Position numbers and translations under genes: made by a program. Positions 1 to 30,700 of a DNA stretch of 38,735 nucleotides are shown one piece after another. Source of the stretch: an uncultured Syntrophaceae bacterium (GTDB lineage Bacteria; Desulfobacterota; BSN033; UBA1163). The notes below the pieces were generated by a model. That model worked only from the letters and a program-made list of their open reading frames with translations, made no database searches and was not told the DNA's origin. Each line of letters starts with the position of its first letter. Position 1 is the first letter of the stretch. The stretch covers positions 1 through 38,735 of the forward strand of contig CAZXMB010000003.1 of the NCBI GenBank assembly GCA_964641715.1, in the 5' to 3' direction.

Positions 1-93
1 GGTTTGCAGGTGGCCAATCGGCCATGACCAATTAGTTTGCATTGTTAGGCAGATAGGCTTTGTCCATTTTATATTAACTGCGGTTAATTGTTT

Positions 94-546
94 ATGAAAA
101 TTACCAAAAAGGGGGAATATGCGATGCGGGCCCTGGTGGACCTTGCATTAAACTACAGGAAAGGGATGAGGCAAATTCAAGAGATTGTAAGGGAAGAAGA
201 TATCCCGGAGAAATTTTTAGAACAGATATTAATCATACTTAAAAATGCAGGTTTTATACAGAGCAAAAGGGGCATAGGCGGTGGATATTTTTTAAGTAAG
301 TCTCCTGATGAGATTTCGCTAGGTGATGTCATTCGATTGATTGATGGGCCATTGTCTCCTTTAGGATGTGTGGACACCAATCATGCGAACTGTCCAAAAG
401 AAATAACTTGTGGGATTCGTAGCGTCATGCTTGATGTAGCAAATGCGACAGCAGAAATTTTAGATCGTGTTACATTGGCAGATGTCTGTAAAAGGACAAG
501 AGGCATGAGGGAACGAAGGGCTCAAACCTTGATGTATTATATTTAA
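94..546 (+). CDS. Rrf2-family transcriptional regulator (IscR/CymR-like, probable Fe-S ligand Cys triad)
   Basis: ORF 88..546; the ATG at 94 is preferred over the TTG at 88. N-terminal wHTH MKITKKGEYAMRALVDLA and the GIGGGYFL motif are typical of Rrf2. The Cys triad CVDTNHANCPKEITC has C-x7-C-x5-C spacing. Confidence 0.85.
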   Translation: MKITKKGEYAMRALVDLALNYRKGMRQIQEIVREEDIPEKFLEQILIILKNAGFIQSKRGIGGGYFLSKSPDEISLGDVIRLIDGPLSPLGCVDTNHANCPKEITCGIRSVMLDVANATAEILDRVTLADVCKRTRGMRERRAQTLMYYI

Positions 547-583
547 TTTTTTAATCCGAAAGCCTGTTAGAAAGAACACCTCG

Positions 584-796
584 GTGGATCAAGGAGAAAT
601 TAAAGGGGTGCAAGAAATAATTGATTTTAAAGAAAACGAAAAAAGACTTCTTTCGCAAATTTTAAAAGCGTTAAAGAGTATCCGATACGGTTGCGTCCAG
701 ATTTACATCCAGGATTCCAAAGTGGTTCAGATAGATAAGACCGAAAAGATCAGGTTCGATAGGGAAGGATATTTAAAACTATTAGGTGGAGGGTGA
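584..796 (+). CDS. YezD/DUF2292-family small protein
   Basis: 70-aa ORF. The segment YGCVQIYIQDSKVVQIDKTEKIRF resembles the DUF2292 signature. An alternative GTG start at 608 lies 9 nt after AAGGAG. Confidence 0.6.
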   Translation: MDQGEIKGVQEIIDFKENEKRLLSQILKALKSIRYGCVQIYIQDSKVVQIDKTEKIRFDREGYLKLLGGG

Positions 797-850
797 AAGT
801 TATTTTCTGTAGGTAATTTTTAAAACCATTACGCTGACCAGACAACTGGA

Positions 851-886
851 GGCTAAAAAGACTGAAGTCTTTTTAGCCTTTTTTTT
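851..886 (+). terminator. Rho-independent terminator after yezD-like gene
   Basis: GGCTAAAAAGAC-TGAA-GTCTTTTTAGCC forms a perfect 12-bp stem, followed by a run of 8 T. Confidence 0.75.
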
Positions 887-937
887 ACAGAGTGTAACTT
901 AATCATTCCCTTTCATAATTTTTAGGAGGTGACGAAA

Positions 938-1957
938 ATGGGAGAGTTGATAAAGAAAGGATTTAAGACAGAGGATTGGTTGGCGGTCTGGTTAGGTTTC
1001 CTCATTATTGCCCTGGTCTTAATTGGGGTGAGACCTCAGATGCCGACCTTTAAATGGACAACCGCAGGGGAATTCAGTACTACGGTTGCGGAATCGAAGC
1101 CCAAGCTCCAAACCTTTATTAAGGACGCCGAGACAAAAGGAGAGAGGAGCCTTGCGGTGGCTGCAACTAACTTGAAGAATGCCATTGACGGAGGTAATCG
1201 AGTCGCCATTCAAAGCGCTGCCAAGAAACTTGGAGAAATTGCAAAGACGGTCGAGGACCCTGGCCTCAGGAAAAAAGGGGGGGATCTCAGCAAAAAGCTG
1301 AGCGAGGGGGCCGGGGCCCTCGCCAGTAAGGTATTTTCAACGGGGAATATCCTCAAGTCTGTTTACATTGGAGTCGGATTTCTTGTCATCACCATGATTG
1401 GGATAGTGATGATGGGTGGTAAGGTGAGTACCTTTATCATAGGCTTCCCGATTGTCTATGGCCTCGCCTGGTTCTCTCAGTTCATCGCAGGAAATGCCAC
1501 AATTAACTATTTGGGATTTGAGTATGTCATCTTCGCCCTTCTGATTGGCCTCTTCATCAGTAATATCATCGGTGTGGCTGCGCTTCTCATTTCTATCTGG
1601 TGGGCATTGAAAAAGGGGAAGCAGTCCGGAGAGCGACCAAGTATCAGAGTGATCTGGGAACGGTTCCCCAAGTTTGTTCTCGGATTCTTGGTTTCTTCTT
1701 TCGTCTTTTCATTCCTACTCGATCCGAGACTCGTGAAAGAGACCAAGGGGATACTTAGTGGGGTCAGAACATTTTGGTTTGCTCTTGCCTTCACCTCTAT
1801 CGGGCTGGAAACGCGTTTCACGGAGCTTTTCAAAATGGGTGGAGGCCGGCCAGCTATCGCCTTTATTGGAGCCCAAACCTTTAATGTTATCTGGACGCTC
1901 CTATTGGCATATCTTCTCTTTGGTGGATTCATTTTTCTAGCGCCTGTAATTAAATAA
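938..1957 (+). CDS. YeiH/UPF0324-like membrane protein (putative sulfate/sulfur-anion exporter family), atypical architecture
   Basis: ORF 929..1957; the ATG at 938 lies 9 nt after AGGAGG. The C-terminal block FPKFVLGFLVSSF..FWFALAFTSIGLETRF..AFIGAQTFNV and the LIGLFISNIIG motif resemble the family. The N-terminus has one TM helix followed by about 90 hydrophilic residues. Confidence 0.5.
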   Translation: MGELIKKGFKTEDWLAVWLGFLIIALVLIGVRPQMPTFKWTTAGEFSTTVAESKPKLQTFIKDAETKGERSLAVAATNLKNAIDGGNRVAIQSAAKKLGEIAKTVEDPGLRKKGGDLSKKLSEGAGALASKVFSTGNILKSVYIGVGFLVITMIGIVMMGGKVSTFIIGFPIVYGLAWFSQFIAGNATINYLGFEYVIFALLIGLFISNIIGVAALLISIWWALKKGKQSGERPSIRVIWERFPKFVLGFLVSSFVFSFLLDPRLVKETKGILSGVRTFWFALAFTSIGLETRFTELFKMGGGRPAIAFIGAQTFNVIWTLLLAYLLFGGFIFLAPVIK

Positions 1958-2027
1958 CGTTATTGAAGAGGATGAAATCTTTAAGAAAGAATCAAATGAT
2001 AAATCATTGAAATTTGAAAGGGATCAC

Positions 2028-3359
2028 ATGAAATTACATTATCTACCAATGGGTTTTAACCTGAAGGGGAAAAAGGTAATCGTCATTGGTGGAGGAGATG
2101 TGGCTTCAAGAAAGGTCCATAAATTATTATCGGCAGGTGCGAATATCACCGTCCTATCTCCTGTCCTCTGCCCTGACTTAAAAGAGTTATCCAACTCAGG
2201 GATGATCGAACACAAGAATTTGAGATTCTCTCCAGAGGCCCTGAGAGATGCGGATATGATCATTGCAGCCACCTCCTCTAAGGAGGTCAATGCGAACGTT
2301 TCAACTCTTGCACACGAAAGAAAAGTTCCTGTATGTGTTGTCGATGATCCATCCATTTCAGATTTTATCTTTCCTGCCACCTCCTCCTTTAGAGATTTCG
2401 TCATAGCCATATCAACGGATGGAAATCATCCTGGGATTTCTTCAAGGATTAGAGAATTTGTTGACGATCACAAGGACGAGCTCGAAATCAGGGTGATTTC
2501 TGGGAAACGTCATCAAGAGAAGAGAGAAAAAGGCGCTAAAGTCTATCTTATAGGGGCCGGACCAGGAAATCCAGAGCTTTTAACCATCAGAGCCCTTGCC
2601 TTGATTAAAAGTGCTGATGTGATCCTTAAAGATTACTCGGTCCCAAAGGAAATTATCAGATTTTCAGGTACCTCGGCTAAGGTGATATCGCTACGGCCAT
2701 CCGAAAATAGAGCCACCCATGGATCGAAATTTCGACAGCAATACCTCAACCAATTAATGGTTCGTTTTGCCATCGAGGGGAAGAAAGTAGTACGGCTTAA
2801 GAACGGAGACCCCTTTGTGTTTGGCAGAGGAGGAGAAGAAGTCGAATACCTTGTATCTCAAGGCATTCCCATTGAGGTTGTTCCGGGAATTACTACTGCT
2901 TTGGGGGCGGCAGCCTCCATATTTCTTCCGTTGACTCATAGAAAATTTGCCTCCACATTGACTCTGATTACAGGGCAAGAGGACATGGATAAAGATAGAG
3001 AAACAACCGATTGGAAGAAGCTTCCTAAGAATGGGACGATTGTCGCCTATATGCCGGTTAAAAATGTACAGGAGCTCCAAAGCCATTTAACCGAAGCGGG
3101 TTTCCCTGACGAGACACCTGTGGCCATTGTTGAAAAGGCTACCTATCCCTCTCAGCGGGCATTCCATTCTGTTCTCTCAAAACTGTCACAAACTGTGAAA
3201 GAAAACAGGATAGGTTCCCCTGCCATTATGTTCATAGGTGAAACGGCGAAAATTTCTTATATTGCTTTGGAATCTAACTCTATCACCCCTGTCTACCGGC
3301 TGGCAGGCTTCGCCTCTCCCAACAGGGAAAGGGAGGGAGTGAGGGGAAAATACATTTAA
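2028..3359 (+). CDS. cysG: Siroheme synthase: precorrin-2 dehydrogenase/sirohydrochlorin ferrochelatase fused to uroporphyrinogen-III C-methyltransferase
   Basis: N-terminal Rossmann motif GKKVIVIGGGDVASRKV. The C-terminal half has VYLIGAGPGNPELLTIRAL..DVIL and RLKNGDPFVFGRGGEE (SUMT motifs). ATG at 2028 is preferred over the TTG at 2007. Confidence 0.85.
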   Translation: MKLHYLPMGFNLKGKKVIVIGGGDVASRKVHKLLSAGANITVLSPVLCPDLKELSNSGMIEHKNLRFSPEALRDADMIIAATSSKEVNANVSTLAHERKVPVCVVDDPSISDFIFPATSSFRDFVIAISTDGNHPGISSRIREFVDDHKDELEIRVISGKRHQEKREKGAKVYLIGAGPGNPELLTIRALALIKSADVILKDYSVPKEIIRFSGTSAKVISLRPSENRATHGSKFRQQYLNQLMVRFAIEGKKVVRLKNGDPFVFGRGGEEVEYLVSQGIPIEVVPGITTALGAAASIFLPLTHRKFASTLTLITGQEDMDKDRETTDWKKLPKNGTIVAYMPVKNVQELQSHLTEAGFPDETPVAIVEKATYPSQRAFHSVLSKLSQTVKENRIGSPAIMFIGETAKISYIALESNSITPVYRLAGFASPNREREGVRGKYI

Positions 3360-3373
3360 GGTAAAGGATAGGA

Positions 3374-5701
3374 ATGTTTGAACTGCCAGAAAAAGTAAGA
3401 AGAGATATCGAAGACTACAGGAAATATCTGAATGATTTTTTGGCCTCAAGAATGAGTTCAGACCGCTTCAAAGGAATACGTGTCCCTTGGGGAATTTACA
3501 GTCACCGGGGCGGAAAGATATTCATGAACCGGATCAGGATTCCAGGAGGATGGGTTGGACCAACTCAGCTCAGGGCGATTGCCCACGTTGCCCAAAAATA
3601 TGGTAACGGTGTTGCGCATCTTACAACCCGTCAGGACATTCAAGTCCATGAGGTGAAGATCGAAGATACCATAGAGGTGATTGATTATTTAAAAGAGGTT
3701 CAGCTTTCTCCCAGGGGAGGAGGAGGAAATACAGTCAGAAATATCACCTCTTGTCCTCTCTCCGGAATCTGTCCGGAAGAGATTTTCGATGTCAAGAATG
3801 ATGCGATCTCTCTCAGTGAATATCTTCTGTGCCAGGATACGTCATATAATCTCCCCCGTAAATTTAAGATAGCCTTTTCCGGTTGTGCAAAGGATTGCGC
3901 AGGTTGCTTAGCCAATGATTTGGGATTTTTGGCTCAATATCAAAACCATCAAAGGGGGTTTAAGGTATATGTGGGCGGAGGCATGGGGGCAGAGCCCCAA
4001 ATAGGTCAGTTGCTGGAGGAGTTTATCCCGGAAGAGGAGTTAGGCTACTGTGTCGAGGCGACAAAGAATGTATTTCATTGGAATGGTGATCGAAAAAATA
4101 AACATCGTAACCGCTTAAGATTCCTGATTGAGAAGATTGGCATTGCAGAATTTAAAGGCCTTTATGAAAAAGAACTTCAGAGGTTAAAAGAAAATGAAAA
4201 GATCGTTTTAAAAAAGGTAACCTCTGATAGAAAATTCTTCGGAGCCGATGGAGAATTCCATAAAATAGACGATGAGGAATTCAAAACCTTTCTTCAATAC
4301 AATGTCCGTCACCAGAAACAGAAAGGGTTTTCAAGTATCGAGCTACGTATCCCACAGGGAGATATCACGGCCAAAGAATTATCCGAGCTCGCAGATCTTG
4401 AAAAACACTTTGAAGGAATTGAATTTCGGACTTCTTTCAAACAGAATATCTTTATCTGCTGGGTACGTCACCAAGACCTATACCAGTTATTCTTAAAATT
4501 AAAGGGAATTCTTAAGGACTTTCTTTATCCCAATACCCTTTTGGATGTGGTCGCTTGTAAAGGAGCGTCGACTTGTAACTTAGGCCTATGCAATTCTCCC
4601 GGGTTAGCAAAAGAAATAGAGGGAATGATTAAATCGGAATTCATAGGCACAGACATATTTAAGGATCTTGAGATAAACATAAATGGTTGTCCGAATGCCT
4701 GTGGCCAACACCCCTTGGGGAAACTTTCATTTTACGGAATAGTGAAGAGGGGGGATCATCGCCCGGTTCCGTTCTATAAATTTCTATTGGGTGGAAAAAG
4801 AGAGGCGGAACACACTCGGTTGGCTCAGGAGATAGGGGCTCTTCCTGCAAGGAATGTCCCGAATTTCTTAAGGCTGTTCCTTAAAAGGGTCGATGAGATG
4901 ATCCATGAAAAAAAGGGGGCCCAAGGAATCGATGATCTCTTAAGAAACCAGGCAAGAGAGATTGCCATGCCCATCTTAAAAGATTTTTCCCAGGTCCCAA
5001 CTTATTCCAAAAATCGAGATTTTTACATTGACTGGGGTAAGACAAAAGAATTTTCTTTGGAAGGGTTAGGCCCTGGAGAATGTGGAGCAGGAGTGGTTAA
5101 TATGATCGAATCTGATTTGAAGGAGGCCGATGTGGCTTTGGAAGAAGCAGAGAGAGAAAGTTATTCTGCTAAGAAAATCAGGGAGGTTATATTTTTCTCA
5201 AGCCGGTCCCTTTTGGTCGTAAAGGGCCAAGATCCTAAAAACGAGGAAGAGGCCCTTTCCCTGTTCAAAACAAAGTTCATAGAAGAAGGGATCGCCTCAG
5301 ACCTCTATTCAAACATAGAGGATATATTCAAAAGCATTCATGGCGAATTGAGCATGGAAGAGAAAAGGGAAAAATTTCTTTATGCAAAGGGATTTCTATC
5401 ACATATCCATCAGCTCTATCATGAGATGGACCCTTCCTTCAATTTTCCCAGGAGAAGAGAGAGGACAGAAGGACCTATCGCTCATCATCTGGACTTAAAA
5501 GGGGCAGGTTGTCCGATCAATTATGTGAAGGCGAAACTATTCCTGGAGAATCTGAACCCCGGGGATGTCCTGGAGATCTTCCTTGACGAAGGCGAATCCA
5601 TCAATAATGTCCCTCAAAGTTTGAAGAACGATGGGCATGAAATCCTTGGTATCGAGAAGCAAGATAGTTTTTACCGGGTTGTAGTGAAGAGGTCTGATTG
5701 A
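3374..5701 (+). CDS. Ferredoxin-type (assimilatory) sulfite/nitrite reductase fused to a C-terminal TusA/SirA-like sulfur-carrier domain
   Basis: NiR/SiR ferredoxin-like repeats (IRIPGG..LTTRQDIQ). Siroheme-[4Fe-4S] Cys motifs CKGASTCNLGLC and NGCPNACGQHP. The last 74 aa (5477-5698) are LDLKGAGCPINYVKAK..GDVLEIFLDEG, a TusA fold. Confidence 0.8.
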   Translation: MFELPEKVRRDIEDYRKYLNDFLASRMSSDRFKGIRVPWGIYSHRGGKIFMNRIRIPGGWVGPTQLRAIAHVAQKYGNGVAHLTTRQDIQVHEVKIEDTIEVIDYLKEVQLSPRGGGGNTVRNITSCPLSGICPEEIFDVKNDAISLSEYLLCQDTSYNLPRKFKIAFSGCAKDCAGCLANDLGFLAQYQNHQRGFKVYVGGGMGAEPQIGQLLEEFIPEEELGYCVEATKNVFHWNGDRKNKHRNRLRFLIEKIGIAEFKGLYEKELQRLKENEKIVLKKVTSDRKFFGADGEFHKIDDEEFKTFLQYNVRHQKQKGFSSIELRIPQGDITAKELSELADLEKHFEGIEFRTSFKQNIFICWVRHQDLYQLFLKLKGILKDFLYPNTLLDVVACKGASTCNLGLCNSPGLAKEIEGMIKSEFIGTDIFKDLEININGCPNACGQHPLGKLSFYGIVKRGDHRPVPFYKFLLGGKREAEHTRLAQEIGALPARNVPNFLRLFLKRVDEMIHEKKGAQGIDDLLRNQAREIAMPILKDFSQVPTYSKNRDFYIDWGKTKEFSLEGLGPGECGAGVVNMIESDLKEADVALEEAERESYSAKKIREVIFFSSRSLLVVKGQDPKNEEEALSLFKTKFIEEGIASDLYSNIEDIFKSIHGELSMEEKREKFLYAKGFLSHIHQLYHEMDPSFNFPRRRERTEGPIAHHLDLKGAGCPINYVKAKLFLENLNPGDVLEIFLDEGESINNVPQSLKNDGHEILGIEKQDSFYRVVVKRSD

Positions 5702-5783
5702 CATAACGTTTACCCCGTAAGACCTCTGGTCTCTTACGGAGTTTGCCGATGGAGGAAAAGGGGATAAATGCCGGGGGTTTAAT

Positions 5784-6620
5784 ATGAATCTAAACGAAGA
5801 AAAAATTGAAAGATATAGCCGTCAGATCCTTCTGCCTCAGATTGGAGGTAAAGGCCAGGAGAAGCTTCTGGCATCCAGAGTACTTATTGTTGGAGTCGGA
5901 GGTCTGGGATCCCCAGTGGCTGCTTATCTTACCGGCGCAGGGGTGGGGACACTGGGGATTGTAGATTCAGACGAAGTGGAATTGAGCAATCTTCATCGAC
6001 AGATGATCTATTCTTCTGATGATATTGGAAAGAAGAAGGCGATGGCCGCCCAGCATCGTCTTCAAAGGATGAATCCCGACGTAAAAGTGGTTCCATATGT
6101 TTCGCGGTTGTCTTCAAAAAATATTATGGAAATTATTAAAGAGTACGATATCGTGGTGGACGGAAGTGATAATTTCCCCACCCGATACCTGGTTAATGAT
6201 GCATGTGTGATTGCCAAAAAGGACTTAGTTTTTGGTGCTTTTTTCAGATATGAAGGACAGGCCATGGTGATCAAGCCTGGAGAAGGCCCATGTCTTCGGT
6301 GCATATTCCCTTCACCCCCTCCGCCTGGATTGGTCCCTTCATGTCAAGAAGCAGGTGTGCTCGGAGCGTTAGCAGGTGTCATAGGATTGATCCAGGCGAC
6401 CGAGACCTTAAAGCTTATTCTTGGAATTGGTGAACCCCTTATTGGGAAATTCCTTCTATTCGATACCTTAGAGATGAGTTTAACGAAATTGAATACGAGG
6501 AAGGATGAAAATTGTCCTATCTGCAGCAAGAACCCATCGATTCGGGAATTGGTCAATTATGAAGAATTTTGTAAATCAAGTGCCTCACCCCGCCTTTCTG
6601 TCCATGAAGTGGACTTTTAA
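5784..6620 (+). CDS. ThiF/MoeB/HesA-family E1-like adenylyltransferase (sulfur-carrier protein activating enzyme)
   Basis: YSRQILLPQIGGKGQEKL, the nucleotide loop VGVGGLGSP, and D..ELSNLHRQ. Two CxxC pairs (CLRC, CPIC). No rhodanese domain. Confidence 0.85.
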   Translation: MNLNEEKIERYSRQILLPQIGGKGQEKLLASRVLIVGVGGLGSPVAAYLTGAGVGTLGIVDSDEVELSNLHRQMIYSSDDIGKKKAMAAQHRLQRMNPDVKVVPYVSRLSSKNIMEIIKEYDIVVDGSDNFPTRYLVNDACVIAKKDLVFGAFFRYEGQAMVIKPGEGPCLRCIFPSPPPPGLVPSCQEAGVLGALAGVIGLIQATETLKLILGIGEPLIGKFLLFDTLEMSLTKLNTRKDENCPICSKNPSIRELVNYEEFCKSSASPRLSVHEVDF

Positions 6621-7669
6621 AGAACACATACATGAGGCTCGTTGCTGGCAACCACTTCTCCAACCTGAACAGCAGTTTTAACGCCTGCCCTTTTCAATTC
6701 AGTGACCAGCCGGTCGGCCTCGGCAGAAGGAACAGAAAGCAGGAGTCCTCCGGATGTCTGAGGATCGAAGAGAAGTTCTTCTTCCTCTCTTGAAAGCTCT
6801 CTGATTTTCCTAAAGAACCCTTCGGCCAATTTTCTGTTGGCCTTGTTGCTCCCTGTTGTTTCGCCCTTACGATACATTTGGAGGGCATTTGGGTAGAAAG
6901 GAAGTTTATCGTAAAAAAGATTGATCTGGACTCCACTTCCCTTTGCCATCCCTAAGGAATGGCCGACGATACCAAATCCCGTTATATCGGTGCAAGCATG
7001 AATATCAAAGTTCAAGGCAATTTCTATCGCTTTTTTATTGAGAAACGCCACCTCGTGAAGAATAACCTCGAGGTCACGCCACGGCAGTTTCTTGGAACGG
7101 CATGCATTAAACAAAACACCTGTCCCAAGAGGTTTGGTCAAGATCAAAACATCCCCTTCTTTGGCACCACAATTGGTAAGGATGCGATCAGGATGAACCA
7201 CTCCTGTAACGGCCAGGCCATACTTGGGTTCATTGTCATCGACTGAGTGGCCGCCTGCAATGGAGGCGCCTGCCTCAGAAACCTTGTCACATCCTCCACG
7301 GAGTATCTCTCTTAAAATACTCGCATCGAGTTTTTTAGTCGGATACATGACAAGATTTAGGGCAGTCAGAGGTTTACCTCCCATGGCGTATACGTCCGAT
7401 AACGCATTGGCACCAGCTATCTGCCCAAACCAATAGGGGTCATCAACCGGAGGCGTAATAAAGTCCACTGTACTGATTAAAGCCAGATTATCTGACAGAC
7501 GATAAACAGCCGCATCATCACTGGTCTCAAAACCTACCAGGAGATTTGGATCCTGAGAAGGCTTCAATGCTTTCAGCGCTTCCGACAGATCTGTCGGACC
7601 GATTTTAGCCGCTCAGCCGCAGGTGCGGGAGAGCCCCGTTAAAGTCTTCTTTTTTCTGAAAAACGCCAT
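6617..7669 (-). CDS. selD: Selenide, water dikinase (selenophosphate synthetase), selenocysteine-containing form
   Basis: The ORF track gives 6617..7567 from an internal TTG. The same frame extends upstream as ATG(7669)-AFFRKKKTLTGLSRTCG-TGA(7615..7613)-AAKIGPTDLSEALKAL. The TGA aligns with the catalytic Cys of E. coli SelD (GAGCGCKISP). GAGGTG lies 4 nt upstream of the ATG. The body has DAAVY, TVDFITPPVDDPY and GANALSDVYAMGG. Confidence 0.9.
7577..7615 (-). promoter_or_regulatory. Sec-recoding site: UGA plus SECIS-like hairpin
   Basis: On the minus strand the sequence is UGA GCGGCUAAAAUCGG U-CCGACA-GAUC-UGUCGG-A. The 7-bp stem starts 15 nt after the UGA (palindrome at 7582-7597). Confidence 0.6.
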
Positions 7670-7741
7670 AATTCACCTCGATCTTTACCCCCCTTATCCC
7701 TCTTTATAAACCTGCAGAAAAAGTAGGTACTGCTATTCTCA

Positions 7742-8758
7742 TTAGAGTTCCTTAAAAGTGATAGTATACCCTAAATTAAATCCAAATAGATCATCTAATG
7801 CCTTCCCGTCAGCCTCTGCATAGGGGTACATGAAATAGTTTAACCTTCCGCCTTTCTGAGGGGGATCAAGGATGAGGTCTCTACCAATTCCGTAGGATAT
7901 TCTACTTGCATCTACAGCGCCAAAATAATATTCCCTGTATTCTTTCTCCTCTCCCAAATTCAGTTTCTTCTCAAGCATGATCTTTCTTACATCAGACGGG
8001 TCAATCGGCACCCAGCCGTATCCGGGAAGATAGAACTCCGCCCAGCAGTGCTGGGTTTTTGTCATATCCCCCTCTTTTCCATTTGGGATTCGAATACCGA
8101 AGATCTCTCGTGAAGGGACGCCAACGCTCCTTGCAAGTGCCACATAGACAGAATGAATATCTCCACATTTACCACCCAAACTTTTTAGAAGCTTTTCCAC
8201 TTCTCCCATTCCGCAACCTTTAATCTGGGGATCACGATACATATTATCCACAATCCAATCATAAATCGCTCGTGCTTTGGCAAGGGTTGTCCTTTTACCC
8301 TTCGTAATATTTTCGGCTACTTCTCTAACCTTCCCGCCAATCGGGCTAAGACTTGTTGCCATCAGATATTTTTCAAATTCCTTTTGGTTAAATGGTAGTT
8401 CGTCCTTGGAAAAGCCCTTTTTTACTACCTCCTTTCTCTTTATCTTAAAAGTATAGGTGAGAATTCTTTCCTTTACAGGGCTTTTCCATTCTGCATAGAG
8501 AATCGAATTTCCGAATCCCTTTTCTCTGTAAATACCTTGTTTGGAATAATTCCCACTAATCCTCACATCCTCTATTGCCTGGTTTTCATCGGATACCGGA
8601 TATGGAATCCAGAGCCTCACATCTTTTGAATTCTCTGGTGCTTTAAGATTGATCTTAAAGATCACCTCTACGCTTCTCACTTTTGCCTCAGAGGAAGTAA
8701 AAAGGAAACATATGACAACCAAAATCAGAATAAAGCGTATAACCTTTTTCTTTGGCAT
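7742..8758 (-). CDS. Transglutaminase-like (Cys-His-Asp cysteine protease fold) exported or membrane-anchored protein
   Basis: ORF 7742..8788; the likely start is MPKKKVIRFILILVV (ATG 8758) after GGAGGT. Hydrophobic signal/anchor sequence. Catalytic motifs GGKCGDIHSVYVALARSVGVPSR, HCWAEFYLPGYGWVPIDPSD. Confidence 0.8.
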   Translation of the reverse strand: MPKKKVIRFILILVVICFLFTSSEAKVRSVEVIFKINLKAPENSKDVRLWIPYPVSDENQAIEDVRISGNYSKQGIYREKGFGNSILYAEWKSPVKERILTYTFKIKRKEVVKKGFSKDELPFNQKEFEKYLMATSLSPIGGKVREVAENITKGKRTTLAKARAIYDWIVDNMYRDPQIKGCGMGEVEKLLKSLGGKCGDIHSVYVALARSVGVPSREIFGIRIPNGKEGDMTKTQHCWAEFYLPGYGWVPIDPSDVRKIMLEKKLNLGEEKEYREYYFGAVDASRISYGIGRDLILDPPQKGGRLNYFMYPYAEADGKALDDLFGFNLGYTITFKEL

Positions 8759-8789
8759 AAAATTACCTCCTATGAACTCACAGTGCATC

Positions 8790-9380
8790 TTACGGTCGGA
8801 TCAAACGATCAGCCTCCAGCATGGACTGGAGAATATCATACATGTTGGAAATCGTGCCTACACTCAGTTTTTCTCTTAACTTATAGAAATCGAGACATGT
8901 TCCGCAGGAGACAATCTCCACTCCCGCTTTAGATAACTCTACAAGATTCTCAAGAACCTTGGAACCTTCGGCAGCCAATTGAACTCCGCTATTGATTAGA
9001 ATCAAACGATCAGGCTTCTTCTCCAGATCCAGTAGGGTCTTAAGGAAGGCCTTCATTAAGAAGGATCCCAATGCTTCATCCCCCATCCCGAGAAGATCGG
9101 AGTTGATGTAGACTACTACCTTTCTTACTTTCTCCTCCTGTTTGACTGCTCTTTCTTCATCTCTGGCCTTGATCTTCTGGATATGGATATAAAAATCCTC
9201 TCCTTTCTTCTCCACTCCGACTGAACATCCCTGACTTTGAGCGAATCTCTCCACATTGCCACATGAAGAAGGATTGTCCACAATAACGATCAACTCACCC
9301 TCTTTTAGTTGATCCAATGCTTGCTTTGTCGTAATTACAGGTTGAGGGCAGCCCATGCCCCTGCAATCGATCTCTTTCAT
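8790..9380 (-). CDS. yedF: YedF-type selenium metabolism protein (TusA-like plus DsrE-like domains)
   Basis: ORF 8790..9404; the likely start is MKEIDCRGMGCPQPV (ATG 9380), 8 nt after AAGGAGG. It has a CPxP TusA motif and a C-terminal DsrE-like half (VVVYINSD..ILINSGV..VSCGTCLD). Confidence 0.8.
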   Translation of the reverse strand: MKEIDCRGMGCPQPVITTKQALDQLKEGELIVIVDNPSSCGNVERFAQSQGCSVGVEKKGEDFYIHIQKIKARDEERAVKQEEKVRKVVVYINSDLLGMGDEALGSFLMKAFLKTLLDLEKKPDRLILINSGVQLAAEGSKVLENLVELSKAGVEIVSCGTCLDFYKLREKLSVGTISNMYDILQSMLEADRLIRP

Positions 9381-9853
9381 CTGTTGGTCCCTCCTTTTAA
9401 TCATTTAATTTATTATTCAGATTGGATGGAAAGCGGATTTAAGATGGTGATTAATGTGGCTTCAGAAGAAGTTCTCGGCGAGATGAGAGCCCTCTATCCA
9501 ACCAGTCCAATCTTTCTCCTCACACCCTGCCCATTTGAAATTAGCCCAAACCTATGGGCAATTTGAGGCCTCTTTCATGGACGGCATAGAGAATTCCAAA
9601 TACGGTTCATTGGCTCTCACCTCTTTCCTATCCATAGCTGAATTCCCCCGCCCTTCACCCTTTTTCCAGGCGCGAGAGGATTCCAACAATCAACACAACT
9701 TCAGATTAGAAAAAGAATTTCTATATGTCAAATCGGAAATTTCGATAATAATTTCCTTAAATATTGAGATTTCAGATGATCTCTAAATAGGATTTAGATA
9801 GAAATTTTTTAAAACAGAAATGAAATTTGCAGTCCTTTTGCTTTAATCTTAAG

Positions 9854-10900
9854 ATGATTAAAATAAAAGCTCTCTTCGAGATATTTATGGAAGATCATTT
9901 TTATATTCAATGGCATATCACTAACCTTTGCAATCTGCGATGCAAGCATTGCTACCAGGATGATTTCTCTAAAGGGAATGATCTGAATTGGGAAGGTCTT
10001 AAAAAGGTCTCTGAAAATCTCCTCACCACGATCGAAAAATGGGATCAGAAAGCCTGCATCCATCTTACCGGTGGTGAACCTCTTTTAAAACCCGAGCTAT
10101 TTCTCCTCCTGGATCGTCTTGATCAATCCCCTGTCATTGAAGAATTGGGTCTCATCACTAATGGCCTTTTTTTGGATAGGGAGGGGATCGAAAAGCTCAT
10201 CCCCTTTTCTAAATTAAAGAAGATCAAAGTCTCTCTGGACGGAGCGAGTGCGGAGACGAATGATTCGATTCGTGGAAAGGGGAATTTTTCTAAGGTGATC
10301 CGGAATCTCTCCCGGCTTAAGGATGAAAACCGCTTTGAGACCATTCTCATGCTCACCCTCATGAGAAGAAATTTCAGGGATCTTCCGGCTTTTCTTAAAC
10401 TCTCTCAGGATCTGGGGGTCAATGGGTTCATCATTGAAAGGTTCATTCCTTTGGGAAGGGGAAGGGAGAGGATGGATGAGGTATTGAAAAAAGAGCAGTG
10501 GAAAGAATTGACCACCCTTCTTTCAGACCTATTTTTAATCGAGGAAAGGGATAACCTTCTTTCCTTTCAGGCCTTCCAGGTCAACCTCAATGGAGATGAA
10601 CCGGAACTCTTAGGCGCTCCATGTGTCATCGGGAGAGATGGGATCTGTGTGATGCCGGATAGAGATGTTTTTCCCTGCCGGAGGTTTCCCGTCTCCATAG
10701 GAAATCTTTCGGAAGATTCATTGAAGACGATCTGGGAGAAATCAGAGATTCTTGAGAAATTAAGAGGAAAAGACAATCTCAAAGGCAAATGCGGAGCATG
10801 TGATATAGAGGACTGCCGCGGTTGCCGTAGTTTAGCCTTCTCTTTAACTGGAGACTACCTCGCTGAAGATCCTCATTGCTGGTATTCCGGTCAATCCTGA
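9854..10900 (+). CDS. Radical SAM enzyme with C-terminal SPASM domain
   Basis: CNLRCKHC (CxxxCxxC), GGEPLL, and SPASM Cys-rich tail PCVIGRDGICVMPDRDVFPC..GKCGACDIEDCRGC. ATG at 9854 is preferred over the TTG at 9827. Confidence 0.8.
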   Translation: MIKIKALFEIFMEDHFYIQWHITNLCNLRCKHCYQDDFSKGNDLNWEGLKKVSENLLTTIEKWDQKACIHLTGGEPLLKPELFLLLDRLDQSPVIEELGLITNGLFLDREGIEKLIPFSKLKKIKVSLDGASAETNDSIRGKGNFSKVIRNLSRLKDENRFETILMLTLMRRNFRDLPAFLKLSQDLGVNGFIIERFIPLGRGRERMDEVLKKEQWKELTTLLSDLFLIEERDNLLSFQAFQVNLNGDEPELLGAPCVIGRDGICVMPDRDVFPCRRFPVSIGNLSEDSLKTIWEKSEILEKLRGKDNLKGKCGACDIEDCRGCRSLAFSLTGDYLAEDPHCWYSGQS

Positions 10901-10977: not shown

Positions 10978-11006
10978 TTGACAACATAAAGCTTTTAATC
11001 AAGAAT
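10978..11006 (+). promoter_or_regulatory. Sigma70-like promoter (TTGACA-N17-AAGAAT), left copy of the flanking repeat
   Basis: Exact TTGACA, a 17-nt spacer, then AAGAAT; 44 nt upstream of ORF 11050. Confidence 0.35.
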
Positions 11007-11049
11007 TGGCATATCTGGAAGCTATGAAAACCTTTCATAAAATAATCAA

Positions 11050-11340
11050 ATGAAACAAGGCTTAAGCTTTCTTAAAAAATTCCCAAAAGATCGCAATGGA
11101 TTGTATATTGTGTATGACCTTTACACCTTTGATAATTTTTTTCAATTGTTTTTGAAGAGCTGGCATGACCATGAAGAAGCTCTATTGTTTATCCTTGGTC
11201 ATTGCTCATTAAGTGCCTTAGTGTTCCAGGAGAGGATTCACAATAAAAAATATAAAAGACTCTTAGGAAAGGATGCATTACCGCCAGATTTGGCCGCTCA
11301 CAAGGCGAGACTTATCTACGATTTCATGAGCCTTAAATAG
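11050..11340 (+). CDS. Hypothetical protein (AT-rich islet)
   Basis: 96-aa ORF with no recognisable motif. Its stop codon directly abuts the stop codon of the convergent gene at 11341. Confidence 0.3.
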   Translation: MKQGLSFLKKFPKDRNGLYIVYDLYTFDNFFQLFLKSWHDHEEALLFILGHCSLSALVFQERIHNKKYKRLLGKDALPPDLAAHKARLIYDFMSLK

Positions 11341-12357
11341 TTAGCAAACTTCCTCAAGAATTAGTTGGTTATCTTTGAAGTGATATTCTACAAGGGTAAT
11401 GGTATTCTCTCTCAGGGCTTGTATTTTCTTGCATAGCTGATTATATTTTTCAAAAATTACGGACTTGAATCGTTCATTATCGGTATTCCTGAGATAGATC
11501 AAATAGAAATTGAGTCTTTCTATATTATTTGATTTTATTCTTTCAGAAAAAAGAGAATAATATAGATGCTTTCTAATTTCTTTTTGAATTTGTGGGATGA
11601 TGTTAGCTGTCAACTTACCTTTTTTAAGTTCAAAGATATTGATATTGTTTTCGTTTAAAACTACTATATCTGAAGGGTAAGCGTTTCCGAAAATAAATTG
11701 GTTATAGATTTCTGAAAAACCTAAATCATTGCTCTCGTATTTGTTTAGAAGGGTGTTAAAACTTTTGCATTCCTCACCCTTTTCGTTTTTTAGAGAAAGA
11801 ATAATATAAGATTCGAGATCACTCTCCGAGGAGAAATAGTTCTTCTTGTTAAGTCTGTTTTTTCGATAGATATATTCGCAATCGACGTGATTCATATCGT
11901 TAATCAATGCACTTTCTCGAACAGGGCTATAATTAGAGCCAAAATCATCGAATGTGGCTAAGATTGCGTCTCCCTCATCATTAGTTAAAGAAACGCAATG
12001 CAAGTGTTTATTCTGTTGAATTAAATTGATTATCCTAAAATACAATGCTATTTTTTCCAATTGTATTCCATTTAAGTACAGGTCTGTTTCTTCAATGATT
12101 CTTATTGTTCCTATGGGCTTAAATTTAATGCGATAGAAATATCTTTGCTGAGGATATATGATATCGTTGTTATGGAAGAGAGTCTCGGTAACCTGAAGTG
12201 GACCAAAAAGATTTTGAGATTTGGGGTTAAATTGAGAGAGAAAAATGATATCACCAACATTTATATTGGCTAACCAATTTGATTGACTTGCCCCGTAGGT
12301 CAAATACTCCAAGCATGGATCAGCAAATTTAGTTGTTGTTACTATGTAATATCTCAT
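11341..12357 (-). CDS. Hypothetical two-domain protein: N-terminal PUA/EVE-like beta-barrel candidate plus C-terminal NucS/Shedu-like PD-(D/E)xK nuclease
   Basis: 338-aa ORF in strongly AT-rich DNA. The C-terminal pattern is ESDLESYII..(40 aa)..YPSD(230)IVVLNENNINIFE(243)LK(245)KGK..IPQ(256)IQKE, i.e. E..LE / D-x12-ExK / Q, as in NucS/DUF4263-type nucleases. The N-terminal YG..NW..INVGDIIFL..FGPLQV pattern resembles EVE/ASCH. Confidence 0.55.
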   Translation of the reverse strand: MRYYIVTTTKFADPCLEYLTYGASQSNWLANINVGDIIFLSQFNPKSQNLFGPLQVTETLFHNNDIIYPQQRYFYRIKFKPIGTIRIIEETDLYLNGIQLEKIALYFRIINLIQQNKHLHCVSLTNDEGDAILATFDDFGSNYSPVRESALINDMNHVDCEYIYRKNRLNKKNYFSSESDLESYIILSLKNEKGEECKSFNTLLNKYESNDLGFSEIYNQFIFGNAYPSDIVVLNENNINIFELKKGKLTANIIPQIQKEIRKHLYYSLFSERIKSNNIERLNFYLIYLRNTDNERFKSVIFEKYNQLCKKIQALRENTITLVEYHFKDNQLILEEVC

Positions 12358-12562
12358 ATTTTAAGGCTAGCAAAAGCAAAACTATTTGTCTAGTAGATTC
12401 AGATAAAATTGAATAATTAACAATTTGGGATCCGAATGGGGTGAGAAAAGGGCCTCTTTTGTAGGGTCAGTGACATGAAAGGACGCCAGGAAATACTGAC
12501 GGGTTATTCAGGATGAATGAGAGAATTACTGGTGAATCGGTCTACCCTATTTTCACTTTCCC

Positions 12563-12982
12563 TTGATTAATTTAGCAAATCAATATGCTCAAGGAACTAG
12601 ACCAAAAGTGGTTGGTCAAAGGATATTGCAGAAATTGAAAGACCTTAAAAATTCCCTAAATAAAATTGATCGAACGATGGTTGAACAGTGGGTAAGAGAT
12701 TTAGTGGTTGTCAAAACATTTGCCGGATTAAGGTTCCAAGAAGCCATCCTTAAGAAAGGTGCAGACATAAAGAGAATAAACTCTCGCCTCTCTGAGCCGC
12801 ATGAAGAGCGGAGAGGGGTTGACGGGTTTATCGGCGATATTCCTGTTTCTATAAAGCCTGATACCTACAAAGTAAAGGCAGCATTACCAGAACAAATAGA
12901 TATTAAGATTGTCTATTACAAAAAGGTTGATGATACCATACTACCATTTTCTTTGACCTCCTCCATCGAAACAAAATCGTGA
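12563..12982 (+). CDS. Restriction-endonuclease-like protein (MjaI-family-like PD..SxK core), possibly N-terminally truncated
   Basis: INLANQYAQGTRPKVVGQ, VRDLVVVKTFAGLRFQEAIL and RGVDGFIGDIPVSIKPDTY recall the MjaI-type REase layout. It has a TTG start, and an in-frame stop lies only 10 codons upstream (12533). Confidence 0.4.
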   Translation: MINLANQYAQGTRPKVVGQRILQKLKDLKNSLNKIDRTMVEQWVRDLVVVKTFAGLRFQEAILKKGADIKRINSRLSEPHEERRGVDGFIGDIPVSIKPDTYKVKAALPEQIDIKIVYYKKVDDTILPFSLTSSIETKS

Positions 12983-12992
12983 TAAAAATTGA

Positions 12993-13021
12993 TTGACAAT
13001 TATAAGGGTTTACTCAAGAAT
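12993..13021 (+). promoter_or_regulatory. Sigma70-like promoter (TTGACA-N17-AAGAAT), right copy of the flanking repeat, upstream of rmuC
   Basis: Same geometry as 10978-11006; 75 nt upstream of the rmuC ATG. Confidence 0.4.
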
Positions 13022-27739: not shown

Positions 27740-30700
27740 ATGATGAAGAAACTCTACCTGGGAATGGACATTGGTTCGGTCAGTGCCAATACCGTGATCA
27801 TGAACGATCAGGGAGAAGTGCTGGAAGAGCATTACACGCGGATCAAAGGTCAGCCTCTTCAGACGGTCCAGAGGATCCTGGAAGAAATCCTCAGCAGGAT
27901 TCCACCTGATCAATTTCACTCCCTCTCTTTTACAGGGGTAGGAGGAAAACTGATCTCCGATCTTTTGGACGGAAATTTTATCAATGAGATCATTGCCCAG
28001 GCAAAGGCGGTCCAATCTCTTTATCCCAAGATCCGAACGATCATCGATATCGGAGGAGAGGATTCCAAACTGATCTTCCTCGAAGAGGAGAATGGTCATC
28101 TTAAGATCAGCGATTTCTCGATGAATACCCTCTGTGCAGCCGGCACCGGCTCCTTTTTGGATCAGCAAGCCAGCCGATTGGGTCTGACCATTGAGGAGTT
28201 TGGCCAGCTTGCCCTCCGGTCCAAGAACCCGCCCCGTATTGCAGGGCGATGCAGTGTCTTTGCGAAATCGGACATGATTCACCTTCAACAGATCGCCACA
28301 CCGGATTACGATATCGTTGCCGGTCTTTGTTTCGCCCTTGCCAGAAATTTTAAGAGCAATATCGGGAAGGGGAAAGTCTTTGTCAAACCCATTTCCTTTC
28401 AAGGGGGAGTGGCAGCGAATGTGGGGATGAGAAAGGCATTCCAGGAGGTCCTGGAGCTTTCAGATGGTGAGCTTACCATTCCGGAACATTTTGCCTCTAT
28501 GGGAGCCATCGGTGCCGTGATGGTGTCCAGGGAGAGCAAAGAGATCAAGACCATCCGGAGATTGGATCTCACCCCGCTGAAGGATTACCTTCAACATCAT
28601 CAGGAGAGAGAAAGGCCGCTCAAACAACTCTGTCTCTCTTCAAATCACTTATCACCCTCACCCCTACCCTCTCTCATAAAGGAAGAGGGGGTAAGAAGTG
28701 ATTTTCCCATCAAAGGAGAGGTGGGAGAAAGGGTCTCTTCCAATAAGGGAGGGGGTGAAAAATCGGGAAAGATCGAGGCCTACCTTGGCCTGGATGTCGG
28801 TTCCATTAGCACCAACCTCGTGGTGATTGGTAAGGATAAAAAAGTCCTTTCAAAACGTTATCTCATGACGGCCGGTAGACCCATCGAAGCCGTTCGCACA
28901 GGTCTCCAGGAAATCGGTGAGGAAATCGGAAACCGTGTGGAGATCAAAGGGGTGGGGACCACGGGTTCCGGCCGCTACCTCACTGCCGATTTTGTAGGTG
29001 CGGATTTGGTCCGAAATGAGATCACGGCACAGGCAACCGCCGCAGTCGAGATTGATCCCGGTGTGGATACGATCTTTGAGATCGGTGGCCAGGATTCCAA
29101 GTATATCAGCCTCGACAGCGGTGTGGTCATCGATTTTGAAATGAACAAGGTCTGTGCCGCCGGGACAGGCTCTTTTTTAGAGGAGCAGGCGGAGAAACTC
29201 GATATCTCCATCAAAGAGGAATTCGGATCCCTTGCCCTCTCTTCGGAGAAACCGGTCAGGATGGGTGAACGATGTACGGTCTTCATCGAATCTGATCTGG
29301 TCCATCACCAGCAGAGAGGTGCGAGAAAGGACGATCTGGTTGCGGGCCTGAGTTATTCCATCGTCCAAAATTATCTCAACCGGGTGGTGGGAGACCGCCG
29401 TATCGGGAACCGGATCTTTTTCCAGGGGGGAACAGCCTTCAATAAAGGGGTGGTGGCGGCCTTCGAAAGCGTTCTCGGAAAAGAGGTGGTCGTCCCTGAA
29501 AATCATGATGTGACAGGAGCGATTGGCGTCGCCATCCTGGCCATGGAAGAACGGACCTGGGAACGATCGAGTTTCAAGGGATTTGATCTCAGCCACCGCC
29601 GCTATGAACATTCCTCCTTTGAATGCAAGGGTTGTCCCAATCTCTGCCTCATCCGAAAGGTGAGCGTTGAAGGGGAGAAACCTCTCTTTTATGGAAGCCG
29701 ATGCGAGAAGTATGATGTCATTAAAAGGACAAAAGGCTCGGACCTACCCGACCTTTTCGGGGAGAGAGAGAAGATGCTCTTCGCCCCTTATGGCGGAGAG
29801 GAGCATCTTTCTGTCCATGCTCCGGAGATTGGTATTCCCGGAATTCTTTTTTTCCACGAGATGTTTCCTTTCTGGAAGGCCTTCTTTACCGAATTGGGGT
29901 ATCGGGTGGTTCTTTCCGATCCCACCCATAAGGAGCTGATTCGAAAAGGAGTGGAGAATGTCGTTGCAGAGACCTGTTTTCCGATCAAGGTGAGTCATGG
30001 ACATGTCCTGAACCTGCTGGAGAAGGGGGTCAAGAAAATTTTTCTGCCGAGTATCGTGAACCTCAAATCCTCCCATCCGGAGATCCCCACGAATACCGCT
30101 TGCCCTTATGCCCAGGCCTTTCCTTATGCGGTCCATTCCTCCATCGATTTTAAAAAGGACGGAGCGGAGATCCTGCAACCCATCCTCCATTTTGGTTTTG
30201 GAAGAAATACCCTGGAGAAGGAACTGATCGATTTTGGAGGATCCCTCCGCAGGGGATCGAAGCGTGTAAGGATGGCCCTTGAAAAGGCTGAAAAATTTCA
30301 GGCTCTATTCTACCAATCCCTCCTCAACCGGGGAAAGGAGATTCTGGATCGGATCGGACGAAACGAGAAGGCCATGGTCATTGTGGGAAGACCTTACAAT
30401 TCCTGCGATTCAGGAGTCAACCTCGAGATTCCAAAGAAACTGAGGGACCTGGGAGTTCTTGCCATTCCCATGGATTTTCTGCCCCTGGAATCGGTCAAAC
30501 CTACTTCCGAGATCCGGGAGATGTACTGGAGGTACGGTCAGAGGATACTCTCGGCAGGGAAGATTATCAATGAGGACCCCAGGCTTTATGCAGTCTATAT
30601 CACCAATTTCGGGTGCGGTCCGGATTCCTTCATCAGCCACTTCTTCAGGGATCTCTCCAAGGAGAAACCCTACCTTCAGCTGGAGATTGACGAACATAGC

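Follow-up and report, generated by a model that had tools for sequence, protein, structure and literature searches.

An exported transglutaminase-like protein family in the selenium gene neighbourhood of a yedF-selD locus from an uncultured Syntrophaceae bacterium

We analyzed a stretch of 38,735 nucleotides (hereafter the window) from an uncultured Syntrophaceae bacterium (GenBank assembly GCA_964641715.1, contig CAZXMB010000003.1), in which three closely spaced minus-strand genes encode YedF, a predicted exported transglutaminase-like (TGase-like) protein and the selenoprotein SelD, with a divergent plus-strand gene for a radical S-adenosylmethionine (SAM)/SPASM enzyme (Table 1). By comparing the window with relative loci (labelled L001, L003, L099 and so on), we found that the linkage of the TGase-like family to selenium genes is real and extends across phyla, and this suggests that bacterial selenium handling includes a step that has so far gone unnoticed.

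Gene layout of the locus

The gaps on either side of the TGase-like gene measure 31 nt (8759–8789, to yedF) and 72 nt (7670–7741, to selD), and in neither of them did the minus strand show a terminator-like site. Within the TGase-like gene there is a weak promoter-like match. We infer that yedF, the TGase-like gene and selD are co-transcribed as one unit. A first-pass annotation of the window had placed the three genes at these distances with the radical SAM gene divergent, and had recognised in YedF a CPxP-containing TusA-like domain joined to a DsrE-like domain; the coordinates were confirmed, and both the family score of YedF and its CPQP and CGTC motifs agree with that assignment.

The same annotation designated selD as a selenocysteine (Sec)-encoding gene. 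An in-frame TGA at 7615–7613, within the motif TCG-U-AAK, aligns with the active-site Cys/Sec position, and the gene is complete only when this codon is read through, yielding a SelD of 350 residues (MAFFRKKKTLTGLSRTCG-U-AAKIG). The label is sound, because 67 distinct relatives have the UGA at this very codon and it is followed, 14 nt 3΄, by a 7-bp hairpin of the Sec insertion sequence (SECIS) type whose pairing is conserved: relatives display wobble (G-U) and compensatory variants, in other words only pairing-compatible changes. Since SelD itself needs Sec, the Sec trait must be encoded elsewhere in the genome. Anywhere in the 38.7-kb window we found none of selA, selB, selU/mnmH, yqeB/C and senA/B, as had been stated before, and no tRNA either; the markers of the described selenium traits (Sec insertion, selenouridine, Se-Mo cofactor and selenoneine) are not part of the module.

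The control region between yedF and the radical SAM gene is common to both transcription directions, as the first-pass annotation had proposed, and its length, given there as roughly 470 nt, becomes 482 nt because the real start of the radical SAM gene is the ATG at 9887. The start offered by a program-made list (TTG at 9827) was rejected, since it overlaps the gene's own –35 box and the orthologue alignment leads to the ATG. The block between the two putative promoters was seen, in an alignment of 17 upstream regions, only where the radical SAM gene faces the selD operon.

Table 1. Features of the locus in window coordinates; bit scores are given against curated cutoffs where marked 'vs'
Feature	Position	Strand	Basis
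selD, selenoprotein gene, 350 codons	6617–7669	–	ATG at 7669, stop 6617–6619; TIGR00476 380.3 bits vs 125
SECIS-type hairpin of selD, UCCGACA-GAUC-UGUCGGA	7581–7598	–	fold; starts 14 nt after the UGA; conserved
Predicted exported TGase-like gene, 338 aa from MPKKK	7742–8758	–	PF01841 91.6 bits
yedF, TusA-like (CPQP) + DsrE-like (CGTC) selenium-metabolism protein	8790–9404	–	TIGR03527 237.6 bits vs 110; motifs in the translation
3΄ strand of long-range helix P1, GGCUCUCAUCUC	9480–9491	–	pairs with the Shine-Dalgarno (SD) region of the mini-ORF, 9612–9623; folds
SECIS-like hairpin of the leader, GCCCA-UAGGUU-UGGGC	9544–9559	–	exactly 15 nt after the UGA of the mini-ORF
Leader mini open reading frame (mini-ORF), 11 codons MNRIWNSLCRP + UGA (9577–9575)	9575–9610	–	preceded by a strong SD, GGAGGUGAGAGCC; kept in 7 loci
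Putative sigma-70 promoter of the yedF-TGase-selD operon	9703–9731	–	–35 TTGACA 9731–9726, 17 nt, –10 TAATCT 9708–9703; block kept in at least 13 related loci
Inter-promoter block, near-palindromic CGAAAnTTTCGA-type motif, candidate shared operator	9732–9826	.	alignment of 17 upstream regions
Putative promoter of the radical SAM gene	9827–9855	+	–35 TTGCAG 9827–9832, 17 nt, –10 TAAGAT 9850–9855; conserved block
Radical SAM/SPASM enzyme, unclassified family, 337 aa	9887–10900	+	PF04055 + PF13186; start from orthologue alignment

The transglutaminase-like family

The TGase-like protein has the length of its homologues (338 aa) and is composed of a signal peptide (residues ~1–25), a beta-sandwich (27–109) and a TGase core (~140–338). 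The first-pass annotation had described an exported or membrane-anchored TGase-fold protein with a Cys-His-Asp triad in the motifs GGKCGD, HCWAEFY and IDPSD. These motifs, the second in the form QHCWAEFY, are present and conserved in 80 homologues, in which the triad residues C198, H237 and D253 are invariant or nearly invariant; two further cysteines, C182 (KGCG) and C238 (QHCW), are invariant as well. An N-terminal hydrophobic helix with an AxA-type cleavage motif was found in all homologues aligned, which indicates that the protein is exported. Because the Cys before the AxA site is not conserved, as read from the alignment, we interpreted this signal as one for signal peptidase I and not as a lipobox.

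The PF01841 score lies above the gathering score of 23 bits, and no NCBIfam model was matched by the protein. A first AlphaFold model, built from 12 sequences, was discarded (pLDDT 57.9); the model based on the 80-sequence alignment reached a pLDDT of 90.4 and a pTM of 0.86, and displayed the N-terminal helix, the beta-sandwich (27–109) and the TGase core. With this model, the best Foldseek matches in the PDB were 3isr, an uncharacterised 'putative cysteine protease' from Cytophaga (E 3.7e-17, full-length TM 0.59/0.68), and the periplasmic domain of Pseudomonas aeruginosa TgpA (6g49; E 2e-8), and eukaryotic transglutaminases and PNGase came next; a PDB sequence search with the TGase profile gave only a marginal TgpA match. 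The conserved triad, the export signal, the two-domain model and the Foldseek matches together point to a genuine, exported papain-like thiol enzyme that is probably active and is without a characterised close relative. The family is large, with 4437 clusters of homologues at E ≤ 0.001 and at least 587 species-level genomes.

We surveyed the neighbourhoods of 80 TGase loci from species-representative genomes (TGase identity 81–46%), many of them with short flanks only, and counted four core selenium markers: the LysR-type regulator LysR_Se (NF040786), YedF, the double-cubane reductase DCCP (NF040772) and SelD. At least one of these lay within 4 kb of the TGase-like gene in 35 of the 80 loci. 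The neighbours within this distance were LysR_Se-type regulators (21), YedF (13), DCCP (7), TusA (5), rhodanese (4) and SelD (3). Used as an internal control, the marker density was 24.8 per 100 kb in the first kb beside the TGase-like gene and fell to 2.1–2.4 at 1–4 kb, 1.1 at 4–7 kb and 0 at 7–10 kb, a distance-dependent enrichment of more than 20-fold. All 18 LysR neighbours tested matched only NF040786, the 'selenium metabolism-associated LysR' (E ≤ 1e-60), and two that were scored individually reached 272 and 317 bits against its cutoff of 250. It was previously reported that LysR_Se and YedF are almost confined to SelD-positive organisms (PMC5322559), and that 955 of 970 NF040772 proteins occur in SelD-positive assemblies (bioRxiv 10.1101/2022.07.06.499078).

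The gene orders varied among lineages. The TGase-like gene is followed by yedF after 6–17 nt in Nitrospirota, where YedF scores 189–207 bits on TIGR03527 (cutoff 110), whereas in relatives of Geobacter and Desulfuromonas and in others the LysR gene precedes it, often divergently and at 130–260 nt. L052, from the cultured Geobacteraceae isolate Geomesophilobacter sediminis, is one locus with such a divergent LysR_Se-TGase pair. DCCP was present at seven TGase loci, six times together with an activase, and scored 473 bits against a cutoff of 350. The exact yedF-TGase-selD triad was confined to the close relatives L001 and L003, the latter with the order DCCP-activase-yedF-TGase-selD, and TGase-selD pairs were found in L002, L106, L107 and L119. 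Exported rhodanese, TusA, TtrAB-like molybdoenzymes and split-Soret-like cytochromes were among the other neighbours. Because the orders differ between phyla (yedF-TGase-selD, TGase-yedF, LysR divergent from TGase, TGase-DCCP-activase and the array of L001), mere inherited synteny is less likely to account for the linkage. The first-pass annotation had let its proposal depend on whether the TGase-like gene is linked with selD/yedF in other genomes, and the survey found a conserved linkage with selenium genes.

That annotation had also placed the TGase-fold gene outside the described selenium traits. In the searchable, incompletely covered literature, the only link that we found is an uncommented row of a STRING table, in which an unlinked 'transglutaminase-like enzyme', known by name alone, ranks sixth among the partners of YedF in Slackia (PMC5322559); beyond this row, the result is absence of evidence only.

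Three individual loci were informative in their own right. L001 (7831–12179) contains an array of yedF, a YeeE/YedE-like permease, tusA (90 aa), the TGase-like gene and selD, divergent from an Rrf2 regulator that is 79% identical to that at 88–546 of the window. Its permease (400 aa, PF04143) scores below the YedE (137 versus 350) and TsuA cutoffs, and the array is the fullest version of the putative relay discussed below. In L094 (6301–7320), the TGase-like gene is frameshifted into pieces of 212, 74 and 57 aa and stands between a leader and selD preceded by a gene for a DsrE-like protein with a twin-arginine-type (TAT) signal; it looks like a decaying copy, which fits the TGase-like gene as an exchangeable accessory. 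In L014 (10958–12931), a 658-aa fusion of ArsS (arsenosugar radical SAM (seleno)protein; TIGR04167, 363 bits) with an ArsM-type methyltransferase begins 3 nt after the TGase-like gene and hints at links to wider metalloid metabolism.

The structured leader and the radical SAM gene

Between its promoter and yedF, the operon has a leader of 290 nt with 77% nucleotide identity to the leaders of L003 and L087. Related copies were also found in L094, L106, L107 and L108, always in front of DCCP, yedF or the TGase-like gene (window 9480–9731, minus strand; L003:1573–1957; L087:5506–5900; L094:5832–6182; L106:181–517; L107:366–700; L108:6321–6680), and the leader comparison is based on these seven. 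The mini-ORF follows the pattern M-x3-W/S-x2-R-Y-R-P/S-UGA, with a terminal S in L107 and L-C in place of R-Y in the window, and the RYR codons are synonymous between L003 (CGA UAU CGU) and L087 (CGG UAC CGC). The hairpin behind it is identical in the seven loci save one loop base in L094 (UAGGGU), and the spacer of 15 nt varies in sequence and is constant in length. Because indels of 2 and 8 nt break the reading frame 3΄ of the hairpin, so that it is not common to the copies, the conserved unit is a short peptide, a UGA, a spacing and a hairpin, and not a longer selenoprotein.

The leader hairpin fits bacterial SECIS geometry, namely a fixed distance behind an in-frame UGA and G/U in the apical loop. 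Compared with the SECIS of the selD gene itself, the spacer is 15 versus 14 nt and the loop G is at +23 versus +22. Because its stem is invariant, the hairpin is without covariation. The unit is enclosed by the long-range helix P1, whose 12 pairs were 97.6% paired in the seven sequences, compared with 36–55% in slid controls; in eight of the pairs one partner varies without loss of pairing, and double compensatory changes were not observed. The evidence for P1 is only suggestive, as it comes from seven related copies that also served to derive the structure. Rfam gave nothing at the gathering threshold for the whole window and only chance-level matches at E ≤ 10 for the leader and the selD SECIS region, a negative result that is uninformative for SECIS elements because the true selD SECIS was also unmatched. 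A scan of 1.8 Mb of relative loci for an SD, short ORF, UGA and hairpin revealed no leader family beyond the seven related copies. Two other interpretations of leader segments were rejected: the conserved GGAGGTGAGAGCCAATG is not a relic of a deleted double-cubane gene start, since tblastn detected no relic and the alignment leads to the mini-ORF start, and an alternative second hairpin (UGCCCAU/AUGGGCA) was dropped as it is not kept in all seven copies.

The leader may sense selenium. Termination by RF2 and SelB-mediated Sec decoding would compete at the Pro-UGA, and the outcome could be coupled to an anti-SD switch. The TGase-like gene would then be under two independent selenium-type controls, LysR_Se elsewhere and the leader here, which agrees with a selenium-related role.

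The product of the divergent gene belongs to the radical SAM/SPASM superfamily (motif CNLRCKHC; PF04055, 78.6 bits; PF13186, 32.8 bits). Its best NCBIfam scores were as follows, in bits against the curated cutoff: AhbD (TIGR04545) 163.9/500, TIGR04053 157/395, TIGR04340 (ACGX system radical SAM) 148/400, NirJ2 139/500, NirJ 117/515, NirJ1 97/650 and SbtM (TIGR04082) 138/350; the orthologues of L099 and L088 reached 182–186 bits on AhbD. The first-pass annotation had reckoned with a heme-pathway identity, and the profile search, at 164 against 500 bits, assigned none: the enzyme is not a clear AhbD/NirJ orthologue, because its scores lie below every curated cutoff and its orthologues behave alike. 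An identity as the thio(seleno)oxazole maturase SbtM was also rejected, since the score is below the cutoff and only profile positions 194–515 (the C-terminal two thirds) were matched, without the N-terminal peptide-recognition region. No precursor peptide gene was evident, and a PDB search returned generic PqqE/MoaA-type matches only.

In look-ups centred on the radical SAM gene, selD or a selD remnant stood opposite it in four of six distinct loci (the window, L086, L087 and L082/83), the two without being L081 and L084/85. We also scanned metagenomes for distinct loci in which SelD is at least 79% identical and the upstream sequence is 3 kb long or longer (L104 is a duplicate of L103). The radical SAM gene was divergent from selD in 9 of 13 such loci (L088, L092, L094, L095, L098, L099, L103, L110 and L115) and missing from L108, L111, L119 and L120; the shorter contigs L090 and L114 also carry it. 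Depending on the locus, nothing, the TAT-signal DsrE-like gene, a DUF3617 gene, DCCP-activase-DsrE or yedF-TGase lies between the two genes. A block of ~130 nt with two back-to-back sigma-70-type promoters and the near-palindromic motif is kept in the loci that pair the radical SAM gene with selD, apart from the DUF3617 loci L095 and L114, and is not found in L081 and L084, where the radical SAM gene lies elsewhere. Outside this clade (SelD ≤77% identical) the pairing is gone, apart from two loci with a radical SAM gene product 33% identical to that of the window. Among the loci mapped outside the clade, this radical SAM gene was never found near the TGase family, and it is not linked with yedF or the TGase-like gene. 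Of the linkage that the first-pass annotation had proposed to survey, a recurrent divergent position beside selD in one clade therefore stands, whereas a linkage with yedF or the TGase-like gene, and with selD outside the clade, does not.

These data suggest that the radical SAM gene and selD are probably co-regulated in one clade, and a functional selenium link of the enzyme is possible. An equally good explanation, to which we would give even odds, is inherited gene order in one clade, the enzyme having no function in selenium metabolism and being, for instance, a divergent AhbD-like tetrapyrrole enzyme or a cofactor or protein maturase. The sub-threshold similarities to AhbD, TIGR04053, TIGR04340 and NirJ2 fit this explanation, as do the orthologues L081 and L084/85 that lie elsewhere without selD, the loss of the pairing outside the clade and the cytochrome c and heme-biogenesis genes that are often nearby. 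However, the divergent arrangement persists in both series of loci despite differing genes between, and the double-promoter block follows it with the exceptions given above.

Several observations concern the slot between the two genes. The DsrE-like protein with a twin-arginine-type signal (NKRDFLKVLGAG; 170 aa, CPPCADYFG with a CPPC motif; L099:7365–7874) occupies the slot of the window's yedF-TGase in most relatives (L087, L088, L092, L094, L098, L099, L103 and L110), and an exported DUF3617 protein occupies it in L095 and L114; it seems to be a recurring theme that exported proteins are co-transcribed with selD. In L082 (6515–7792) and L083 (1336–2613), a C-terminal SelD fragment (197–345, 76% identical), a DUF302 gene and an 84-aa activase fragment lie opposite the radical SAM gene, an eroded version of the locus. 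The two radical SAM/SPASM genes with 33% identity (L137:279–1313 and L145:3482–4537, from a SelD clade 73–75% identical) encode a different unclassified enzyme and lie upstream of selD and divergent from it, and L145 has a partial LysR_Se and a YdjY-domain protein between the two genes; we rejected them as the same association, since they are two of ~21 loci and are only 33% identical.

Elsewhere in the window, a sulfur-assimilation-type cluster (88–6620, plus strand) is convergent with selD, its MoeB end overlapping selD by 4 nt. Its order is Rrf2 (88–546; CymR-like, sub-threshold), an unknown 342-aa membrane protein, CysG (siroheme synthase), a 775-aa NirA/sulfite reductase with a C-terminal TusA domain, and MoeB/ThiF. 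The MoeB/sulfite-reductase/Rrf2 arrangement is repeated in L099, and the Rrf2 orthologue of L001 and L003 is instead divergent from the yedF operon, so that Rrf2 may regulate both clusters. A low-GC island at 11000–13000 (GC 0.33–0.36 versus ~0.45–0.50 elsewhere) is possibly horizontally acquired; its ORFs of 338 aa (11341–12357, minus strand) and 139 aa (12563–12982) match neither Pfam nor NCBIfam. A 1421-aa protein (27740–32005) has two modules of the acyl-CoA dehydratase activase type (BcrAD/BadFG), the class to which the activase partners of selenium-correlated double-cubane reductases belong, and does not lie beside the selD operon.

Proposed role, alternatives and related systems

We hypothesized that the region is an operon for selenium acquisition and activation or trafficking that begins, in functional terms, with a periplasmic thiol enzyme, a reading to which we assign a probability of about 0.5. 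One promoter (~9731–9703, minus strand) would serve the structured leader, yedF, the exported TGase-fold enzyme and selD. The TGase-like protein would be secreted to the periplasm, where the thiolate of Cys198, with His237/Asp253 and C182/C238, could capture or release selenium from extracellular or periplasmic Se-thiol species, either by attacking Se-S or Se-Se species or by hydrolysing a Se-carrying conjugate; a selenotrisulfide, a gamma-glutamyl-type conjugate, polyselenide and Se(0) are candidates. Selenium might then be imported via a YedE/YeeE-type channel, such as that encoded in the L001 operon, be held as a perselenide on cytoplasmic YedF and be passed to SelD to give selenophosphate. 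Expression would probably be tuned to selenium status, by LysR_Se in other lineages and by the UGA/SECIS-like leader in this clade, and the divergent radical SAM/SPASM gene would probably be co-regulated via the common control region. This specific acquisition-relay chemistry is tentative, and we hold it to be somewhat doubtful. The complete scheme, in which selenium passes from the TGase-like protein through a YedE-type channel to YedF or TusA and SelD, is sensed by LysR_Se or by a leader measuring Sec-decoding capacity, and requires the radical SAM enzyme as a further selenium-dependent step, is unlikely as a whole.

Several points weigh against a role in selenium acquisition. More than half of the TGase loci have no selenium marker within 4 kb, and some have sulfur-type neighbours (CysDN, a TtrAB-like reductase or rhodanese). 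Most yedF-selD pairs of the same clade are without a TGase-like gene (L091, L097, L111, L112 and L121), and the gene is therefore an accessory; in L099, the closest syntenic relative, the TAT-signal DsrE-like gene replaces yedF-TGase. No permease is present in the operon of the window, and no Sec-for-Cys variant was found among the 80 TGase homologues. Cys-His-Asp triads are characteristic of enzymes such as amidases and proteases and not of sulfur or selenium carriers. No selenium-specific sequence signature supports the acquisition role.

One alternative is that the module handles sulfur or chalcogens generally, the TGase-like protein acting in periplasmic sulfur or polysulfide trafficking (like rhodanese/Sud, TusA and DsrE relays or the YedE-TusA-DsrE (YTD) cluster) and lying near selD through the clustering of sulfur and selenium genes. 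The neighbours of the family include exported rhodanese, TusA, TtrAB-like molybdoenzymes, CysDN, NifS and sulfite reductase, the operon of the window abuts the cluster of CysG, sulfite-reductase-TusA and MoeB, and YTD cluster relays are known from the literature (PMC8780430). However, such sulfur-type neighbours are fewer, at 2–5 loci each, than the selenium-correlated families NF040786 (18/18), TIGR03527 and NF040772, which are by far the commonest, and in this clade the TGase-like gene follows a UGA/SECIS-like leader. We accordingly consider a general sulfur role unlikely.

A little less likely still is a TGase-like protein that works as a periplasmic hydrolase or protease, its expression governed by selenium status, and that moves no selenium, serving, for example, envelope remodelling or as a selenium-independent back-up. 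The intact triad and the two-domain fold shared with 3isr and TgpA would suit such an enzyme, and the archaeal LysR_Se (HrsM) controls Se-free isoenzymes and not trafficking genes (PMC5322559). The position of the TGase-like gene inside operons, between yedF or tusA and selD (the window, L001 and L003), and directly by yedF with gaps of 6–17 nt in Nitrospirota, argues against it. Chance clustering of three independently expressed genes, for which one could cite that co-transcription is inferred only and that a weak promoter-like match lies within the TGase-like gene, is very improbable given the short terminator-free gaps, the repetition of the order in L003 and of the pair in L001 and L002, and the >20-fold distance-dependent enrichment of selenium markers.

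The selenium-acquisition reading concerns a selD-centred accessory gene cluster that is not categorically new and whose putative function is read from sequence. The yedF-selD pair, LysR_Se and the correlation of DCCP with SelD are already known from comparative genomics. New are the large exported TGase-fold family as a consistent member of the selenium neighbourhood and a likely LysR_Se target, the TAT-signal DsrE-like protein and further exported proteins that relatives encode in this slot of the operon, the clade-specific radical SAM/SPASM partner of selD, and the UGA/SECIS-like leader. Little is known of how bacteria secure trace amounts of selenium and bring them safely to SelD. If the proposed role is true, the TGase family, carried by at least 587 species-level genomes of Thermodesulfobacteriota, Nitrospirota, relatives of Geobacter and others, would add a testable periplasmic component to the selenium pathway, and a candidate target gene would be at hand for the LysR_Se regulator. 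A leader that functions in the proposed way would amount to a selenium sensor made from the Sec-decoding machinery itself, a regulatory principle with only one loosely related precedent (selAB).

For that precedent, Thanbichler and Bock reportedly described in 2002 a SECIS-like element in the 5΄ leader of E. coli selAB that is bound by SelB. Both that leader and ours place a hairpin with a GGU-containing loop in front of a selenium-metabolism operon. The leader peptide TnaC, which senses a stop codon, ends in RP-UGA, and the mini-ORF of the window likewise ends in Arg-Pro-UGA. Unlike either system, the window has its hairpin at SECIS distance behind the in-frame UGA of a putatively translated mini-ORF, with a putative long-range anti-SD helix closing around the whole.

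The radical SAM enzyme resembles AhbD/NirJ and SbtM, its best-scoring curated families, in size and in radical SAM plus SPASM architecture, and differs from them in scoring 164, 117–139 and 138 bits against cutoffs of 500, 500–650 and 350; compared with SbtM, it also lacks the N-terminal ~190 residues, and no precursor peptide gene is evident. The TGase-like protein shares the two-domain fold, the Cys-His-Asp triad and the extracytoplasmic site with the periplasmic domain of TgpA (6g49) and with 3isr of Cytophaga hutchinsonii, whereas identity is only 12–13%, the window family has two extra invariant cysteines, and TgpA and 3isr are without a known substrate or selenium link.

A selD-linked accessory set consisting of YedE/YedF (FdhT/FdhU), LysR_Se and DUF3343 has been predicted by comparative genomics (Lin et al. 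2015, PMC5322559), and double-cubane reductases have been correlated with SelD (Haft 2022 preprint). The exported TGase-fold protein is, save for the uncommented STRING row, not among the described members; its locus and family agree with that set in the presence of YedF by SelD in the window and in the partners LysR_Se, YedF, DCCP with its activase, and TusA. Thiosulfate uptake by YeeE/YeeD (TsuA/TsuB) and the YTD cluster of sulfur disproportionators involve neither a periplasmic TGase-like component nor SelD, and yet they share with the L001 array the combination of a channel with cytoplasmic carriers of the TusA/DsrE type.

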